Shown piece by piece: positions 11,672 through 63,734 of a stretch of 64,000 bases of DNA. The notes under the pieces were generated by a model, which did no database searches, had not been told where the DNA came from, and saw nothing but the letters and a program-made list of their open reading frames with translations. The translations under genes were made by a program, and so were the position numbers. Positions within the stretch are counted from its first letter, which is position 1; every line of letters starts with the position of its first letter. Origin of the DNA: Pyrinomonadaceae bacterium (lineage in GTDB: Bacteria; Acidobacteriota; Blastocatellia; Pyrinomonadales; Pyrinomonadaceae); NCBI GenBank assembly GCA_036006355.1, contig DASYPT010000100.1, forward strand, positions 5,724 through 69,723. The letters run 5' to 3'.

Positions 11672-11771
11672 GTCCGATAAACTTTAGTTTGTCGTGCGTG
11701 TGGTCCAGCCGCCTGGGAATTGATCAGCGTTCTGCAAATCGCAGCATCGACAAACTAAAAGTTCGTCGGAC
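11672..11771. repeat. family A terminal-inverted-repeat element copy 1 (100 bp)
   Basis: GTCCGATAAACTTTAGTTTGTCGTG ... CGACAAACTAAAAGTTCGTCGGAC. It ends 5 nt from the stop of 11777..12496. Confidence 0.9.
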
Positions 11772-14989: not shown

Positions 14990-17323
14990 TTAGAATCTTA
15001 GTTTGATCCCTCCTCTACCGACGGCGCCGGGTGCAAGAAAACCGTTTTCGTAGTACGTCCGATCGAATAGGTTCTCGACTCCCGCAAACAAGGTTACTTT
15101 CACTTTCTCAGATGCTGAACGTTCGTAACTAGCGAACACATCCGCCTTCGTATATCCAGGAAAAGTTAACTCTGCCATTCGAAATGGAGAGTTGTTCTCA
15201 AAAACTGGCGCCAAATATGAACCAGTTCGATTAACTTCCAGGCTGACAAGGAATGGGCGATAACGCTGGCTCCAGAAAAAACCGATCAAATGTTTTGGAA
15301 TAACATATTCCGGTTGCAGACCGTGTGACGGGACTGAACGATCACTATTAGTGAAAGTGTAAGCTGCACGAATTTCAGCACCCTTCCACGGCGCAGCCTC
15401 TAGATAAGTCTCCACGCCGCGTGAGAGTCCACCCGGTCGATTGAGATAACCGCTGAACCTGCCAAGTCCGAGCGGGTCAACGGAAAACCCCGTGAACGCA
15501 ACTACGCGTTGCAATCGTGTGTAGAAATAGGTTGCTCCCAGTGAAACTCTGTCAGTCGCTAAACGCTGATCGAAACCGCCATCAACACTGATCGATTGCT
15601 CGGCTTTTAACGTTGGGTCGCCAAATCGCACGGGTCCGGCACTGCCAAATGTTCCCTCTCCAAATCTTTCAAACAAAGACGGTGCTCTGAATCCATTACC
15701 AATGTGACCGCGCAACTTTGTTCCCGTCGTGCGAAACAAATACGCAACTGACCCGTCTCCCGTAATGGAGCTTTCGGCGTCGCGACCTGCTAGTTCACCC
15801 GGACGATCGGCACTCCTGATCCGGTACGATTGAATGCGTGCCCCTAACGAAAACCGAAGTCGATCATCAAGAAAAGCGAATTGATCTTGTCCAAAGACGG
15901 CAAAGGTTCGTTGATGATCAGTTGTGTTGTTGAATGTAGAAAACGATGGTTGGGAACTCTGGAAGAAGCTCTCGCGCTCAAATTCAAAGCCAGCCGTTGC
16001 CAGGTTCGATCGGCCAAGCGTGAAATTTAAGCGACCATCGAATGTATCGATCGTTCCGTTGTTAACGCTTGTCAGTTCGAAATCGCCAAACGGCACGAAA
16101 GAAGTAAATCTCGGATCGACTGCCGGTCCATTGTAGTTTCTTCGGTTTGTTCCTACTCGTTGGTAAGCCAAACTATATGAGACACGATCGCTGACAACTT
16201 GAGTAAACCTGCCGGAACCGACCAGCAGTCGATTGCGTCTACCTTGATCCGGATTGTTGAAGTCAGGCTGGAAGGTTATGCCAGCTACAGCCGACGGGAA
16301 TTGTTGACCACTAAACGCGCCTGGCAAAGCGAAAGGATTGTCATTCACCCGAGCATTTGCGGCGTCGCCGAAGAAAGTTCCGGTTATGGCGATTGAATGA
16401 GTCGGCTTGAATTGCGCCCGTGCGATAAATGACGAATTCCCATACGCGTCGTCCTTATCTATCCCTCTTCGCACGTCCAGCCGATCTACACCGATATTGA
16501 AGCCAAATCGTTCAGCACCTCCCGCTACCTGCAAGCGCTCGCGATATGTGCCAAGGGAACCGCCGTCGAAACTGCTACTAAAGTGAAGTCCTCGCGTCCC
16601 TGAATCCGGAATCACATTAACCACGCCACCAATCGCATGCGTTCCATAAATCGATGAACCTGAGCCGCGAAGTATTTCAACGCGATCTAGGGACACAAGC
16701 GGGAGATCTGAAACCAACGAGACCGCAGACCCGTTGATATCGCCGGCATCGCGGACGCGTAACCCATCGAGAAGTATTGCAGTGTCAAATGTGCGTTGAC
16801 CACGCAAACGCAGCGTGGCCAGGGCGCCCGGCGAGCCTTGTTGCTGAACTCGAACTCCCGGGGTTCCTCTCAGGGCCTCAGAAAAAGCAAGTTCATGTCG
16901 CTGGTCAATCTGCTGACTATCAATGACTGATAACACCTTCGCGGCTTCTTCAATCCGCTCAGCCGTTCCGTTGGCTGTTACGACTACACTTTCGGTAATA
17001 GAAGCCACTGCTAAAGTGATCTGCAACTCTTTGCTTTCACCGCGTGCCAGTCGGATTTCATCATGCGTGTAGGGCGCGAAACCAGGAGCATTAACTTCAA
17101 GGAGATAGGTTCCAGACATCAAACCTCTGAACTCAAACTTGCCCATTTCATCGGTAGTTGTAGAAGACTGCAGACCTGGGTTGGTCAGCAGTCGAAGGCG
17201 AGCGCCCGGGATTTTTGCGCGGTTACTGTCTGTAACTGTTCCCTGAATGTCGCCGGTTGATTGTGCGTAAGCACTGAAGGAAAGAACTGTACTGAAGAAA
17301 ATTATTGAAACGATTCTTTTCAT
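14990..17323 (-). CDS. TonB-dependent receptor with N-terminal carboxypeptidase-regulatory-like domain (BtuB-like by context)
   Basis: Start moved from 17533 to ATG 17323 (GGAGA upstream; signal peptide MKRIVSIIFFSTVLSFSAYAQ). The longer track ORF reads through a riboswitch and a repeat. The protein has plug and barrel regions and a C-terminal Phe. Confidence 0.88.
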   Translation of the reverse strand: MKRIVSIIFFSTVLSFSAYAQSTGDIQGTVTDSNRAKIPGARLRLLTNPGLQSSTTTDEMGKFEFRGLMSGTYLLEVNAPGFAPYTHDEIRLARGESKELQITLAVASITESVVVTANGTAERIEEAAKVLSVIDSQQIDQRHELAFSEALRGTPGVRVQQQGSPGALATLRLRGQRTFDTAILLDGLRVRDAGDINGSAVSLVSDLPLVSLDRVEILRGSGSSIYGTHAIGGVVNVIPDSGTRGLHFSSSFDGGSLGTYRERLQVAGGAERFGFNIGVDRLDVRRGIDKDDAYGNSSFIARAQFKPTHSIAITGTFFGDAANARVNDNPFALPGAFSGQQFPSAVAGITFQPDFNNPDQGRRNRLLVGSGRFTQVVSDRVSYSLAYQRVGTNRRNYNGPAVDPRFTSFVPFGDFELTSVNNGTIDTFDGRLNFTLGRSNLATAGFEFERESFFQSSQPSFSTFNNTTDHQRTFAVFGQDQFAFLDDRLRFSLGARIQSYRIRSADRPGELAGRDAESSITGDGSVAYLFRTTGTKLRGHIGNGFRAPSLFERFGEGTFGSAGPVRFGDPTLKAEQSISVDGGFDQRLATDRVSLGATYFYTRLQRVVAFTGFSVDPLGLGRFSGYLNRPGGLSRGVETYLEAAPWKGAEIRAAYTFTNSDRSVPSHGLQPEYVIPKHLIGFFWSQRYRPFLVSLEVNRTGSYLAPVFENNSPFRMAELTFPGYTKADVFASYERSASEKVKVTLFAGVENLFDRTYYENGFLAPGAVGRGGIKLRF

Positions 17324-17364
17324 GTTAGCTTCTCCTGCCCGTCGCAGTGCGAGCCGAAATAGAA

Positions 17365-17645
17365 TCGCTGAAAGGTTTCCTGACTCGCAGTATTGACCCA
17401 ATAGATCGCGGATCGCCTTAACTCCTCGCCTTCCCAGATTTCTCCAGTGGCTGATTTGTCCGACGAACTTTAGTTTGTCGTTGGCGTGAATAGTGGCCCG
17501 CGAAAAGAACACAGAGGCCGTAACGTCACGCACGACAAACTAAAGTTCGTCGGACTTCTTTGAGGAACTAAATTACTGCATACAGTTGCGCGGGCAGTGG
17601 CGGCATCTCACCGCCTTCCCTTACCAAGCGACTCTTCGGTTATCA
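17365..17645 (-). promoter_or_regulatory. cobalamin riboswitch 2, interrupted by a family A element
   Basis: Read on the minus strand. Core AAGGGAAGGCGGUGAGAUGCCGCCACUGCCCGCGCAACUGU is at 17582-17622. Distal GCCACUGGAGAAAUCUGGGAAGGCG is at 17427-17451. A B12-box-like GAGUCAGGAAACC is at 17371-17388. Confidence 0.6.
17458..17555. repeat. family A element copy 2 (98 bp), inside riboswitch 2
   Basis: GTCCGACGAACTTTAGTTTGTCG ... CGACAAACTAAAGTTCGTCGGAC; the terminal inverted repeats are perfect. Confidence 0.92.
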
Positions 17646-17659
17646 ATTTGCCGATACAG

Positions 17660-18436
17660 TTAATGTACCGGCGTGACGCGAGGCACACCTGAAATCGGAT
17701 GCGCATCGACTAATACATCCACAGAAAATACTTCTCGTAACAAATCCGGCACCAACACTTGCTGCGTTGTTCCGGTTTTCACTACTTGTCCACCTTTCAG
17801 CAATAGAATGACGTCGGCAAACTGTGCAGCGAGATTAATGTCATGAGTGATAACAAGCGCCGACGAACTTCGCGAATTGCAACGTTCTCTAACGAGGCCA
17901 AGCAGGGTGGCCTGATGAGAAAGATCCAGATTCGCGGTGGGTTCGTCCAGTAACAAGATCGGCGCTTCGGTTGCTAAGGCTCGAGCCAGGACCGCTCGTT
18001 GACGTTCACCCCCGGAAAGCTCATTCATCATTCGACCACTGAGTTCGTGTAGCTCGGTTTCATCCAGGACTGCTTCCGCAACCTCAAGATCACGTTCGCC
18101 CTCCCAACCCCACGTAGTGCTGTTGGCCCAGACGAAGCGTCCACCAAGGACATACTCGAATACCGTGATCGGAAACCGCAGCTCTGCTTCCTGTGCAACA
18201 ACCGTGATCTGTTTAGCGATCGCCCGCCGACTCAACTTCCCGAGGGACTTGTCGTTGAGGAGAATTGTTCCGCTGTTGGGGATCAAACTTCCATTCAGTG
18301 ATCGCAATAGTGTCGATTTACCAGCACCGTTTGGTCCAATCACGGCTGTTACCACACCTGGTTCCAACAACATTGAGACGTTGTCCACGGCAGTTCGATG
18401 ACCGTACTTGATTGTTAGATTGCGAGCTTCGAGCAA
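17660..18436 (-). CDS. ABC transporter ATP-binding protein (FecE/BtuD type)
   Basis: Contains GPNGAGKST, LSGGERQR and LLLDEPT. Confidence 0.9.
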   Translation of the reverse strand: MLEARNLTIKYGHRTAVDNVSMLLEPGVVTAVIGPNGAGKSTLLRSLNGSLIPNSGTILLNDKSLGKLSRRAIAKQITVVAQEAELRFPITVFEYVLGGRFVWANSTTWGWEGERDLEVAEAVLDETELHELSGRMMNELSGGERQRAVLARALATEAPILLLDEPTANLDLSHQATLLGLVRERCNSRSSSALVITHDINLAAQFADVILLLKGGQVVKTGTTQQVLVPDLLREVFSVDVLVDAHPISGVPRVTPVH

Positions 18437-18437
18437 G

Positions 18438-19472
18438 TTAGACTCTCTTCAAAAGATAAATAAATAAAGGAGCGCCAATCAGCGCGGTAATTGCTCCCAC
18501 GGGTAACTCGCGGGGGGCAATCACAGTGCGAGCGATTGTGTCCGCAACAATCACAAACAACGCTCCGCCAAGCGTCGCACTCGGAATACTGATCCGGTTA
18601 TCACTTCCCACCGACAACCTTGTGAGATGAGGCACTACCAAACCTACGTATCCGACCGAGCCGCTCGCAGCAACGGAACTTCCTACCAACAAGCTAGCGA
18701 TAAGAAATATCGTTACCCGCACTCGACTAACTTCTACGCCGAGGTCGAATGCGTCGCGTTCGCCGAGCATCAACAAATTCAATGAACGTGCGTTGAGCGT
18801 CAGGATGATCGCGCCAACGACCGCAACGGCTATTGGCACTGGTAATAAGCCGGTGTTTGCGCCCGACAGATCCCCTAACAACCAGAACGTAAAAGATCGG
18901 ATACGTGTCGCATCCATCATCGTGGTTACAAACACGATGATGGACGACAGGAACGTAGTTACGATGACGCCTGCCAGGATCAATCTCTCAGGAGTTGCCC
19001 CAACTCTTCCCCGTGCCAATCTATAAACAGCAAAAGTTGCAACCAATGCTCCCGCGAACGCCATTAGCGGTCGACTCCACTCGAGACTTCCGAAAAACAA
19101 CAGCGCTAACATCGTCCCAACAGCAGCTCCGTTTGAAACCCCGAGAAGATAAGGCTCTGCCAACGGATTTCTGAGCAATGCCTGGTAACCGGCGCCAGCG
19201 GTTGCCAGTGAACCTCCGACAGCCGCTGCCAGCAAGATTCGAGGCAAACGTATCTGAAACAGAATATCGAAGTGATCGCTGGTCAATCCGCACTGTCTGG
19301 CGCCAAGCGTCGTCAGTGCACAGAGTGAATTGGAAACAGGTAGTCGTTCACTTCCAAGTAAAGAAGCCGCGCCAACCACAATAACCAACGCAGCAACAAG
19401 GAACAGCAAGGTTATTATTGTTCGCCGAAGCGTTACTCTGTTTTGGTTGGACAGCCGCGAACTGGTCATCAC
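18438..19472 (-). CDS. FecCD-family ABC permease (BtuC-like)
   Basis: 344 aa, polytopic. Contains FecCD-like LAEPYLLGVSNGAA and a C-terminal GAITALIGAPLFIYLL. Confidence 0.9.
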   Translation of the reverse strand: MMTSSRLSNQNRVTLRRTIITLLFLVAALVIVVGAASLLGSERLPVSNSLCALTTLGARQCGLTSDHFDILFQIRLPRILLAAAVGGSLATAGAGYQALLRNPLAEPYLLGVSNGAAVGTMLALLFFGSLEWSRPLMAFAGALVATFAVYRLARGRVGATPERLILAGVIVTTFLSSIIVFVTTMMDATRIRSFTFWLLGDLSGANTGLLPVPIAVAVVGAIILTLNARSLNLLMLGERDAFDLGVEVSRVRVTIFLIASLLVGSSVAASGSVGYVGLVVPHLTRLSVGSDNRISIPSATLGGALFVIVADTIARTVIAPRELPVGAITALIGAPLFIYLLKRV

Positions 19473-20398
19473 TTGAAGACTTCGGGATGAAGCACTCTTG
19501 CCATCTCCTCCAATCCGTCGACGGCCCTCGGTCCCGGACGTACCAAATGATCGTCGTTGATTTTGTAGACTCTGCCGGTCTTTGCGGCCGGCGAGCTTGC
19601 CAGAGCTTTCGCGACGGTTCCATTACCCTCGCCCATTGATCCGCCCGTGGGAAGAATTATCGCGTCAGGCCTGGCTGCAAGCGCTGCTTCTGCACTGTAC
19701 TTGGGCCACGCTCCCGGGACATTGGCCGTCACCGAATCTGCTCCGGCGCGTTTGAGCAGATCCGTAACGAATGAGTCGTGTCCAGCTGTGTAAAGTGGTT
19801 CAGCAGAAAGTTGATAGAACGTTCTAATGCGTGGAGATTGTTTTAATGCGTTGTCTACAGCCATTGCGCGCGCTCGCAGCGAGGACACAACTGCGGTTGC
19901 CTGCTCCACGTAACCAAGAATTTGTCCAACCTGCTCGATAGAACGAAACACTCCTTCGAGATCATGTGGATCAGTAACGAACACCGCAATATTGTGACTT
20001 CTTAACTGCTCAGTGAAGACCTCGAGTTGTGAGGCAGTTGAGACAAGTACAACTTGAGGCTTCAACGCAATGATTCGTTCCAAATTGGGATGCTGAGTGT
20101 CGCCCACCTTTTCAATGTTCTTTGCTTGGACTGGATAGTCGCAGTAAGTTGTATCACCAGCAAGGCTGCTTCCCGCGCCAACAGCGAAAACTATCTCAGT
20201 CAAATTCGGCGCGAGCGAAATAACGCGATCCACTTTAGCCGGGAGGAAAACCTCTCGCCCCGCATCGTCAGTGATCCGTCGGGTGTTAGTGCTCGGATTG
20301 TTCAGAACTGCGGATGAGCGCGTGCAGGCCGCGACCGAAAATAAGGTTATCAGCAGAAGTGAAAGAGATTTGATAAAACGTGACGAGTTAAGAAACAC
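19469..20398 (-). CDS. periplasmic corrinoid/siderophore-binding lipoprotein (BtuF-like)
   Basis: DRVISLAPNLTEIVFAVGAG is a Peripla_BP_2 motif and LFSVAAC is a lipobox. Start set at GTG 20398 (alternative GTG 20407, GGAGG upstream). The track start at 20635 reads through riboswitch 1. Confidence 0.8.
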   Translation of the reverse strand: MFLNSSRFIKSLSLLLITLFSVAACTRSSAVLNNPSTNTRRITDDAGREVFLPAKVDRVISLAPNLTEIVFAVGAGSSLAGDTTYCDYPVQAKNIEKVGDTQHPNLERIIALKPQVVLVSTASQLEVFTEQLRSHNIAVFVTDPHDLEGVFRSIEQVGQILGYVEQATAVVSSLRARAMAVDNALKQSPRIRTFYQLSAEPLYTAGHDSFVTDLLKRAGADSVTANVPGAWPKYSAEAALAARPDAIILPTGGSMGEGNGTVAKALASSPAAKTGRVYKINDDHLVRPGPRAVDGLEEMARVLHPEVFK

Positions 20399-20511
20399 GA
20401 AACCCACTGACCTCCGATGTTCCAACAAAGGGAAACAGGCTTCAGCGGGATTAAGGATGGGAACCCACAAGCTGCCTGAACACCTTTGCGCGAGTGTTGA
20501 GAGGCGGCAAG

Positions 20512-20616
20512 TGTCTGGGCAGGTCTCCTGGCTTAGAGCAAACTCTTCACAGTGGCGCGACCGCGCGGGAATCTCACCCGCTTCCCTATTCTCCCCAATC
20601 GACTGGGGCACCCAAA
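20512..20616 (-). promoter_or_regulatory. cobalamin riboswitch 1 (short form)
   Basis: Minus-strand RNA reads GGUGCCCCAGUCGAUUGGGGAGAAUAGGGAAGCGGGUGAGAUUCCCGCGCGGUCGCGCCACUGUGAAGAGUUUGCUCUAAGCCAGGAGACCUGCC. It has all the core blocks and a canonical B12 box. Confidence 0.88.
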
Positions 20617-20686
20617 CACAATTTGAAAAGAGCAACTGTAATGTGGCGGCGACACTAACACCTTAAAGTGGGGGTGTCAAACTTCG

Positions 20687-20850
20687 GAAAGGATGAAGGA
20701 TGAAGGCGGAAGGATGAAGGTTGAGCTTTGTACTTTGTACTGGTGCTTCGTACTTTGCGCTCCAGATTCCTCTTGCTCCCAAACTCAAAGCTCAAGGTAC
20801 AAAGTACAAAGCTCAACCTTCATCCTTCCGCCTTCATCCTTCATCCTTTC
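20687..20850. repeat. 164-bp palindrome (type I) with about 54-bp arms
   Basis: GAAAGGATGAAGGATGAAGGCGGAAGGATGAAGGTTGAGCTTTGTACTTTGTAC ... GTACAAAGTACAAAGCTCAACCTTCATCCTTCCGCCTTCATCCTTCATCCTTTC. Confidence 0.9.
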
Positions 20851-20919
20851 TTCGGTTTGCCTCCCCTTCCTGCGTCCAGTAAGATGCCGTTCTATTCAAC
20901 GCCTAACAGGACGAAATCA

Positions 20920-41070: not shown

Positions 41071-41188
41071 GTCCGATATGCTTCAGCTTTGTCGTGACGC
41101 AACCAACCAGGCCCCTCGGTTTACGAACAGAGCTGATTGCCTTGGGGGCCTGGTTGGTAGAGTCCCGACAAGCTAAAGCATATCGGAC
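41071..41188. repeat. family B terminal-inverted-repeat element copy 1 (118 bp)
   Basis: GTCCGATATGCTTCAGCTTTGTCGTGACGCAACCAACCAGGCCCC ... GGGGCCTGGTTGGTAGAGTCCCGACAAGCTAAAGCATATCGGAC. Confidence 0.9.
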
Positions 41189-55673: not shown

Positions 55674-55676
55674 TTG

Positions 55677-55804
55677 TCCGACGAACTTTAGTTTGTCGTG
55701 GTTCCAAAGAGATTAGCCCCAGATTACACAGATGAAACAGATCAGAAGACGTGAAGCCTTTACGCAATTCCTATCCGTCTCATCTGTATAAATCTGTGGC
55801 TAAG
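55677..55804. repeat. family A copy 3 (right outer end missing)
   Basis: The left end is GTCCGACGAACTTTAGTTTGTCGTGG. The inner inverted pair is TTAGCCCCAGATTACACAGATG / CATCTGTATAAATCTGTGGCTAA. It has no right GTCGGAC end. It starts 3 nt after the channel stop. Confidence 0.8.
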
Positions 55805-58973: not shown

Positions 58974-59081
58974 GTCCGATATGCTTTAGCTTGTCGTGAC
59001 GCAACCAACCAAGCCCGAACGATTACGAGGTTCTCAGAAAATTGGGTTGGTTACGTCACGACAAGCTAAAGCATATTGGAC
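58974..59081. repeat. family B element copy 2 (108 bp)
   Basis: GTCCGATATGCTTTAGCTTGTCGTGACGCAACCAACCAAGCCC ... GGGTTGGTTACGTCACGACAAGCTAAAGCATATTGGAC. Confidence 0.9.
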
Positions 59082-63562: not shown

Positions 63563-63734
63563 GTCCGACGAACTTTAGTTTGTCGTGGCCCCAAAGAGAT
63601 TAGCCACAAATTCCACAAATGACGCAAACAGGAATTGTGATGAAGGCTCGAACGTCCTAAGTTCTGATCTGTTTGATTTGTGTAAATTTGTGGCTAATCT
63701 CTTTGGGACCACGACAAACTAAAGTTCGTCGGAC
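63563..63734. repeat. family A copy 4, complete composite element (172 bp)
   Basis: Outer ends GTCCGACGAACTTTAGTTTGTCGTGG / CCACGACAAACTAAAGTTCGTCGGAC. The inner inverted pair is CCAAAGAGATTAGCCACAAATT.. / ..AAATTTGTGGCTAATCTCTTTGG. It starts 1 nt after a stop and ends 5 nt before the next ATG. Confidence 0.93.

Follow-up and report, generated by a model that had tools for sequence, protein, structure and literature searches.

A REP doublet lodged in a cobalamin riboswitch ahead of a TonB-dependent receptor gene of the Pyrinomonadaceae

Results

Locus and operon

The DNA analyzed here (the window) is a stretch of 64,000 nucleotides from a Pyrinomonadaceae bacterium (Acidobacteriota, Blastocatellia; assembly GCA_036006355.1, contig DASYPT010000100.1, positions 5,724 to 69,723 of the forward strand). 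Of concern is the leader of a gene for a TonB-dependent receptor, where a cobalamin riboswitch is interrupted by a 98-bp palindrome, which is typed below as a doublet of repetitive extragenic palindromic (REP) units, a REPIN. The leader lies on the minus strand, in a gap of 336 nt between the stop codon (TAA) of a gene for a btuD-like ATP-binding cassette (ABC) ATPase and the ATG of the receptor gene (17323-17321). Because genes for a permease and a binding protein are found 5′ of the ATPase gene, the operon is btuFCD-like, followed by the receptor:

20501-20630, minus: the first of two cobalamin riboswitches in the operon, with a short P6 (RF00174, 84.8 bits)
19469-20407, minus: periplasmic binding protein, btuF-like (PF01497), with a putative GTG start at 20407 preceded by GGAGG
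18438-19472, minus: FecCD-family permease, btuC-like (PF01032, E = 7e-90)
17660-18436, minus: ABC-transporter ATPase, btuD-like (PF00005), the 5′ neighbor of the receptor gene in the same operon
17353-17662, minus: cobalamin riboswitch aptamer, long P6 extension (Cbl-I type), interrupted by the REPIN (RF00174, cmscan, 52.2 bits, E = 4e-10)
14990-17323, minus: TonB-dependent receptor, the regulated gene (Pfam matches to CarboxypepD_reg, Plug and β-barrel)

Several homologues of the receptor carry the JGI label "vitamin B12 transporter". The two matches to RF00174, one ahead of the binding-protein gene and one in the gap before the receptor, are the only ones in the window. The inner riboswitch stands beside B12 transport genes, a setting expected of cobalamin riboswitches, with the receptor gene 3′ and the btuF-, btuC- and btuD-like genes 5′. 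The first riboswitch possesses the P2 hairpin and has only 4 nt in place of the 62-nt P6 extension of RF00174. With a short-P6 switch before btuFCD and a long-P6 switch before the receptor, two structurally different B12 riboswitches are thus present in one operon.

An earlier reading of the letters, made without database searches (the sequence-only reading), had pointed out that an open reading frame (ORF; 14990-17533, GTG start, 847 aa) runs through the leader and that automated annotation would therefore hide the RNA. The ORF does run through it, its GTG falling inside the REPIN, but the RNA is not hidden: Rfam finds it, and the public receptor call in a 99%-identical locus (L170, 1201-3534, JGI contig Ga0418691_01172) begins at the ATG and comprises 777 aa.

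Parts of the inner riboswitch

Searching with the receptor protein brought up 46 related loci, nearly all of them in assemblies of Pyrinomonadaceae or other Blastocatellia. The order riboswitch, btuFCD, riboswitch, receptor is conserved: RF00174 was matched ahead of btuFCD in 13 of the 14 loci scanned, and ahead of the receptor, too, in 9 of the 14. In the window, the gap before the receptor had been read from the letters as a long-form cobalamin riboswitch, and the covariance model bears this out: the leader does match the family, its score of 52.2 bits exceeds the gathering score of 31.5 bits, and model positions 1-189 are all covered. A local-end state of the model jumps 114 nt of the leader, the 98-bp palindrome included. 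The core and the distal block were found where the sequence-only reading had placed them. Its B12-box-like motif was rightly recognized but set at 17371-17388; the motif itself occupies 17386-17374, and the rest are flanking bases. In the order of the mRNA, the parts are (L013 being the related locus used for pairwise comparison):

17622-17582, minus: core AAGGGAAGGCGGUGAGAUGCCGCCACUGCCCGCGCAACUGU
17597-17587, minus: L5/P5 tract CUGCCCGCGCA, complementary to a tract of the platform, nearly invariant in 31 orthologous leaders and paired by RNAalifold with 17335-17346
17451-17427, minus: distal block GCCACUGGAGAAAUCUGGGAAGGCG
17451-17428, minus: P10-J11/10-P11 module GCC-A-CUGGA-GAAA-UCUGG-GAA-GGC, beginning 6 nt 3′ of the REPIN, identical in L013
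17386-17370, minus: B12 box GAGUCAGGAAACCUUUC (RF00174 match and alignment with relatives), with GAGUCAGGAAACC at 17386-17374
17354-17324, minus: expression platform GCUCGCACUGCGACGGGCAGGAGAAGCUAAC, 0 of 29 positions changed between the window and L013
17346-17335, minus: L13-like tract UGCGACGGGCAG in the platform, paired by RNAalifold with the L5/P5 tract
17335-17332, minus: Shine-Dalgarno (SD) sequence GGAG in the platform, overlapping the 3′ end of the platform tract

The core AAGGGAAG...GCCACUGCCCGCGCAACUGUA and GAGUCAGGAAACC are those of relatives in which the palindrome is missing (empty-site relatives). The B12 box was described earlier as slightly off consensus; the variant GGAAACC is a trait of the clade, present in all eight leaders of alignment A1. 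As every empty-site relative in A1 has it, it is not a sign of decay. The P10-J11/10-P11 module agrees with the RF00174 consensus gCCACUG...CGGGAAGGc as seen in empty-site relatives. The features that define the Cbl-I type, a long P6 extension (P7-P11) with conserved J11/10 adenosines, are present in the sequence at 17451-17428. In class-I riboswitches, these adenosines fold back and shape the adenosyl pocket (PMC7367189). By its parts, the leader is assigned to the class-I cobalamin riboswitches (long P6 extension), and its ligand would be adenosylcobalamin (AdoCbl).

The palindrome as an insertion

The palindrome has two arms of 24 nt, 100% complementary and 50 nt apart. The sequence-only reading had delimited it correctly and noticed its perfect inverted ends, but had made the arms 23 nt long.

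17458-17555, unstranded: 98-bp REPIN (REP doublet), predicted to form a self-contained hairpin, with 24-nt perfect arms; absent from 30 orthologous leaders
17532-17555, minus: 5′ REP arm as read on the mRNA, GTCCGACGAACTTTAGTTTGTCGT, which is in itself an imperfect hairpin of 9 bp (CGACGAACT/AGTTTGTCG)
17458-17481, plus: 3′ REP arm as read on the mRNA, an inverted copy of the 5′ arm

If the 98 nt were a native stem, relatives should share them. Instead, the segment between core and GCCACUG measures 25-42 nt in 28 of the 30 measurable orthologous leaders; the window has 130 nt there, and L013 has 128. The leaders of L171 and L172, whose receptors are ~75% identical, are also free of the palindrome, so that at least 30 orthologous leaders lack the element. 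Clean empty sites are seen in alignments A1 and A2, for example, in L171 and L172, where CCUCAAAGUAGU is joined directly to AGCCACUGG.

The effect of the element on the RF00174 score was gauged from natural empty-site and occupied leaders:

82.2 and 81.5 bits: L171 and L172, the nearest empty-site relatives
75.1-89.7 bits: other empty-site leaders (L011, L040, L032, L002, L001 and L007)
70.3 and 66.7 bits: L019 and L025, empty at this site but expanded elsewhere
52.2, 52.1 and 48.7 bits: the occupied leaders of the window, L170 and L013

The drop of ~30 bits does not reflect lost motifs; it arises because the model passes over the insert and, with it, the GCCACUG...GGGAAGGC module, which is intact.

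In L170 (receptor identity 99%) and L013 (94%), the element occupies the same site with the same flanks as in the window, and the first ~30 nt of its interior match among the three. The window and L013 share ~92% DNA identity across 10 kb of synteny. The usual cut-off for a species is 95% DNA identity; by this rule, the two belong to different species. With the element at one site, and with matching flanks, in three assemblies of two species, the insertion predates their split. Taken together, the comparison of leaders identifies the palindrome as an insertion and not a native stem.

Place of the insert in the fold

A dispersed palindromic repeat inserted in the P6 extension is what the sequence-only reading had proposed, and the insertion point can now be given as a linker 6 nt 5′ of the P10-J11/10-P11 module. 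The insert occupies a 9-12-nt 5′ bulge between a CCUC/GAGG helix and the P10-J11/10-P11 hairpin. This is precisely where RF00174 permits additional bases, and five such bases occur in L011.

When the REPIN and the platform were removed, RNAalifold recovered the cobalamin architecture from ten orthologs. The window aptamer without the element forms 45 of the 46 consensus pairs of the clade in this structure, and for 26 of these pairs two or more kinds of canonical pair occur in the clade (covariation). The minimum free energies calculated with ViennaRNA were −136.5 kcal/mol for the full leader, −74.6 for the excised leader, and −59.0 for the hairpin of the element alone. The predicted fold of the full leader is that of the excised leader plus the element hairpin, all other pairs being identical. 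In these models, the REPIN is structurally insulated: it folds on itself and leaves the aptamer helices unaltered. Its site is peripheral, yet not innocuous, as it adjoins the J11/10 module.

Large hairpins are carried at other places by the receptor leaders of relatives. Expansions of 50-150 nt (predicted free energies from −18 to −79 kcal/mol) are located at L4, in the loop of P11 and at a small hairpin that precedes the B12 box (in L007, L012, L014, L017, L019-L031, L036, L042 and L043). Many are palindromes of GGATGAA-like heptamers, with 16-mers common to other loci and to the window at ~20600-20900; the leader of L007 contains a separate 50-nt palindrome. Expansions at three other sites argue that this lineage of riboswitches tolerates large self-pairing inserts.

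Two further palindromic features were observed in the operon region. A palindrome of GGATGAA heptamers, ~165 nt long, lies at ~20688-20852 of the window, between the first riboswitch and a divergent gene of the IF-2B family, and the TTG start listed for the ORF of that gene (20728) is probably inside it. A hairpin, CCGGUACAUUAACUGUAUCGG, spans the stop codon of the btuD-like gene at 17651-17671 (minus), immediately 5′ of the aptamer. The consensus fold of the clade predicts this hairpin, whose stem differs in sequence among relatives.

Selection on the riboswitch since the insertion

Divergence was compared between the window and L013, that is, between two species at ~92% identity:

17.3%: third codon positions of the four flanking genes
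7.5% (18/241): riboswitch outside the element
0% (0/29): expression platform
4% (2/48, plus one indel): REPIN arms
38% (18/47): REPIN interior

The rate for the riboswitch is lower than that for third codon positions (binomial P = 8e-6), and the changes fall at variable positions or preserve pairs (G-C to G-U, for instance). No change was found in the core blocks, the P10-P11 module or the B12 box. In addition, of 132 columns that are invariant in six empty-site relatives, 123 are kept in the window. This pattern favors continued purifying selection on the riboswitch since the insertion, and the REPIN-bearing switch probably still works.

The sequence-only reading had allowed for either a tolerated hairpin or a dead switch. 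Tolerance is favored because conservation persisted after the insertion; a dead switch is unlikely, although it has to be reckoned with. In that case, docking of P7-P11 and B12 binding would have been lost, and the receptor would be made constitutively or controlled solely via the upstream riboswitch or transcription of the operon. The insert is indeed only 6 nt from the module that shapes the adenosyl pocket, its site is not used in any other relative, and the Rfam score is ~30 bits lower; moreover, the intact riboswitch at the head of the operon could make the inner one dispensable. However, the score fell with the skipping of an intact GCCACUG...GGGAAGGC module, and the consensus helices can all still be formed. 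Core blocks and platform have also remained unchanged in two species after the insertion, whereas third codon positions diverged by 17%. Nor does the inner switch look redundant in the clade, given a match on the btuFCD side in 13 of 14 relatives and both switches in 9 of 14.

Proposed mode of action

Of 31 orthologous leaders, 29 keep the central tract of the platform, ACUGCGACGGGCAGGAGAAGCU, without change, and the start codon follows 5-9 nt 3′ of it. The complementarity of CUGCCCGCGCA and UGCGaCGGGCAG amounts to 11 bp with one bulged A, beside the SD, and covariation is not informative. A kissing loop between L5 and L13 is common to cobalamin riboswitches (PMC7367189). It was considered whether the L5-platform pairing is an anti-aptamer helix, but the published architecture places it at the L5-L13 kissing loop (PMC7367189). 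In L039, L5 has A for G and the platform has U for A; this paired change was considered as covariation of the kissing loop and was discarded, since L012 has the platform change alone.

The following course of events is proposed. A REPIN, of a kind mobilized by RayT-type tyrosine transposases, transposed into the single-stranded linker 6 nt 5′ of P10-J11/10-P11. Its hairpin would convert the 9-12-nt bulge into a three-way junction, with the aptamer helices staying intact. Binding of B12 would stabilize the pairing of L5 with the invariant platform tract beside the SD, presumably as a kissing loop, and the stabilized pairing would occlude the SD and thereby reduce translation of the receptor. 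A scan of 17200-18000 for promoters and terminators returned nothing above the shuffled background; the leader thus lacks an evident signal of either kind, which fits translational control in a polycistronic mRNA.

The element might itself have been co-opted, its long duplex acting as a processing site for RNase III or another enzyme, or as a stabilizer, and so uncoupling btuFCD from the receptor message. REP elements within operons can stabilize upstream mRNA, and RNase III removes hairpin intervening sequences from 23S rRNA with function retained. A perfect RNA stem of 24 bp that extends into the interior would suit such a role, as would arms that are more conserved than the interior or third codon positions. 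Co-option is nevertheless improbable: conservation of the arms is equally expected from recognition by RayT or from gene conversion among copies, all other copies of the family are in ordinary intergenic DNA, and no terminator-like U tract was found after the hairpin on the sense strand. Improbable, too, is the more specific idea that RNase III cuts the duplex out in vivo and that the sensor works in two pieces, joined by the helices of the aptamer. Such a sensor would be the riboswitch counterpart of fragmented 23S rRNA, and mobile hairpins would provide a route for remodeling peripheral domains.

The REP family

With up to three mismatches allowed, the window contains six matches to the arm sequence, compared with 0 in 100 shuffles. 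Apart from the riboswitch, the matches mark three sites, the same number as in the sequence-only reading. Together with two copies of a diverged subfamily and the riboswitch copy, they make six REP/REPIN sites in the window:

11672-11771, unstranded: second REPIN of the same family, 100 bp, also in L013 (arm matches)
55676-55698, plus: REP singlet of the same family (arm match)
63563-63734, unstranded: 172-bp copy, the same REP arms enclosing a different palindromic repeat (GATTAGCCACAAATT...; arm matches)
41071-41188, unstranded: REPIN of the diverged subfamily (GTCCGATATGCTTTAGCTTGTCG)
58974-59081, unstranded: REPIN of the diverged subfamily (GTCCGATATGCTTTAGCTTGTCG)

Relative to the main family, the GTCCGATATGCTTTAGCTTGTCG subfamily shows a paired change from A-T to G-C in the REP hairpin. 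The interiors of its two copies resemble each other. The site at 55676 to ~55800 consists of a single REP arm and the inner repeat GATTAGCCACAAATT..., which makes it a composite or decayed element. In the orthologous REPINs at 11672-11771 of the window and 9349-9442 of L013, the two species differ in the side that bears the variant arm (GATAAAC/GATAAAT), which suggests exchange of arms or a flip within the palindrome.

When metagenomes were scanned with a degenerate pattern of the arm, at least 120 stretches were obtained, nearly all from soil and rhizosphere. Among the matches listed, 246 arms share a conserved block that extends only from −2 to +22, (A)TGTCCGAYRWRCTTTAGYTTGTCG, and has the layout GTCC + GACGAACT-TT-AGTTTGTC; neither outside this block nor toward the interior was any conservation detected over these 246 arms. 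The same matches include 101 inverted pairs, with unrelated interiors and a span that varies continuously from 53 to 296 bp, and 49 unpaired arms. Around 94 pairs among the matches listed, direct repeats of 3, 4, 5 and 6 bp occurred in 1, 1, 0 and 0 cases, so that no target-site duplication was detectable. Their flanks are T...A, mostly AT/AT, and act as part of the palindrome; flanks other than AT were inverted five times and direct twice.

A list of ORFs between arms brought up a RayT-type gene in another contig, L165. This ORF (332-1054) is bracketed by two REPINs of this family, encodes a HUH motif (NHVHTIF) and a tyrosine motif (YVLNNPVKAGL), and matches NCBIfam NF047646, "REP-associated tyrosine transposase", with 54.7 bits (E = 1e-14). 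Many of its 1319 homologues are named RayT or REP-associated tyrosine transposase by JGI or NCBI, and a few carry PF01797. One RayT-named homologue comes from the Blastocatellia assembly GCA_033856235.1 (L168), and its gene is again flanked by inverted REP units. The best match to a PDB sequence is TnpA-REP of E. coli (4ER8), with an E of only 0.33. Two intervals of 1.1-1.3 kb between facing arms (L084 and L127) were examined as candidates for an autonomous element, but the enclosed genes encode ordinary membrane proteins, one of them large and polytopic. A crude scan for HUH motifs of an autonomous element found nothing.

Only the hairpin unit of ~25 nt is conserved, interiors are variable, a target-site duplication is undetectable, and RayT-type genes are flanked by the units. 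For these reasons, the element is classified as a REPIN of a new acidobacterial REP family and not as a MITE (miniature inverted-repeat transposable element) with terminal inverted repeats and target-site duplications. A classical MITE moved by a DDE transposase is hardly credible, since its 24-nt perfect terminal repeats and ~100-bp length would fit, but the continuous lengths and unconserved interiors, the palindromic flanks without a 3-6 bp duplication pattern, the hairpin nature of each arm with its paired subfamily change, the REP units around RayT-type genes, and the failure to find a transposase between facing arms do not. The TT on both flanks of the riboswitch copy, which could be taken for a 2-bp target-site duplication of a MITE, fails as such across the 94 pairs among the matches listed.

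Discussion

Taken as a whole, the data are best accounted for by a class-I riboswitch that received a REPIN before two species split, that accommodates it as an insulated hairpin, and that would still work through L5-platform pairing and occlusion of the SD. We give this joint reading a probability of about 0.65.

A number of observations weigh against it. The insert is not in a terminal loop but lies against the J11/10 module, whose folding back onto the core is required for AdoCbl binding. Docking could therefore be impaired or ligand selectivity altered. This insertion site is used in the lineage of the window only. Two species that are 92% identical provide a short test of conservation, and the SD and platform may have been kept for translation alone. 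In the 5′ third of the aptamer, conservation is lower, with 13 differences between the window and L013 in 107 sites. The pairing of L5 with the platform shows no usable covariation in the 31 leaders, and one A-to-U change in the platform (L012) has no partner change. As regards the transposase, the L165 protein scores below the cutoff of NF047646 (54.7 compared with 80), and a Pfam search with it at E ≤ 0.001 gave no match. Lacking a Pfam match and having a weak PDB match, the assignment as RayT rests on NCBIfam, the motifs and the names of homologues. Finally, no RayT gene was found in the 64-kb window, and the link to RayT is made by other contigs.

If the switch still senses B12, it represents a natural experiment on insertion tolerance beside the very module for AdoCbl specificity of class I. 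Together with the expansions at three other sites, the insert marks where the fold accepts large cargo, which is useful for aptamer engineering and for understanding the evolution of peripheral domains. A REP/RayT system is hereby documented in Acidobacteriota, and REPINs are seen to be able to land and persist within cis-regulatory RNAs. Since inserts of this type cost ~30 covariance-model bits, weaker riboswitches that carry them could drop below annotation thresholds.

Comparison with known systems

The components are each known, an RF00174 riboswitch and a REP/REPIN element. No account of a REP, REPIN or MITE inside a riboswitch aptamer was found in the open-access full-text literature searched. 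With class-I (AdoCbl) riboswitches of RF00174, such as those of T. tengcongensis (4GMA) and E. coli btuB, the window switch shares the four-way-junction core, the B12 box, the long P6 extension with its GCCACUG/GGGAAGG module, the platform tract complementary to L5, and a TonB-dependent B12 receptor 3′. It differs in carrying a 98-nt mobile hairpin in the linker that enters P10, in its position within an operon, directly after the btuD-like stop and as the second of two, and in its B12 box, which is GGAAACC throughout the clade.

The REP/REPIN systems of E. coli and Pseudomonas, with their transposases (RAYT, RayT, TnpA-REP), have in common with the window family a short, imperfectly palindromic unit whose 5′ tail is conserved, hairpin-forming inverted doublets beside singlets, numerous extragenic copies, the lack of a target duplication, and units that flank RayT-type genes. 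In contrast, the window family has a new sequence, (A)TGTCCGAYRWRCTTTAGYTTGTCG, and belongs to Blastocatellia (Acidobacteriota). Its spacers are very variable, from 8 to ~250 nt, and sometimes contain other palindromic repeats, and the window copy is lodged in a structured regulatory RNA.

The facultative stem-loops of the B12 element (RF00174) are likewise peripheral hairpins of variable length, as seen in relatives within the clade. The expansions of those relatives, however, are in terminal loops or extend existing hairpins, whereas the window insert adds a branch at a bulge and is one of the copies of a dispersed mobile family. Inserts in structured RNAs are also known from Rickettsia palindromic elements, from short tandemly repeated repetitive (STRR) sequences in cyanobacterial RNase P RNA, and from intervening sequences of 23S rRNA. 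The window element resembles these in being a self-pairing insert, apparently tolerated at a peripheral point; what sets it apart is its host RNA, the aptamer of a ligand-sensing riboswitch.

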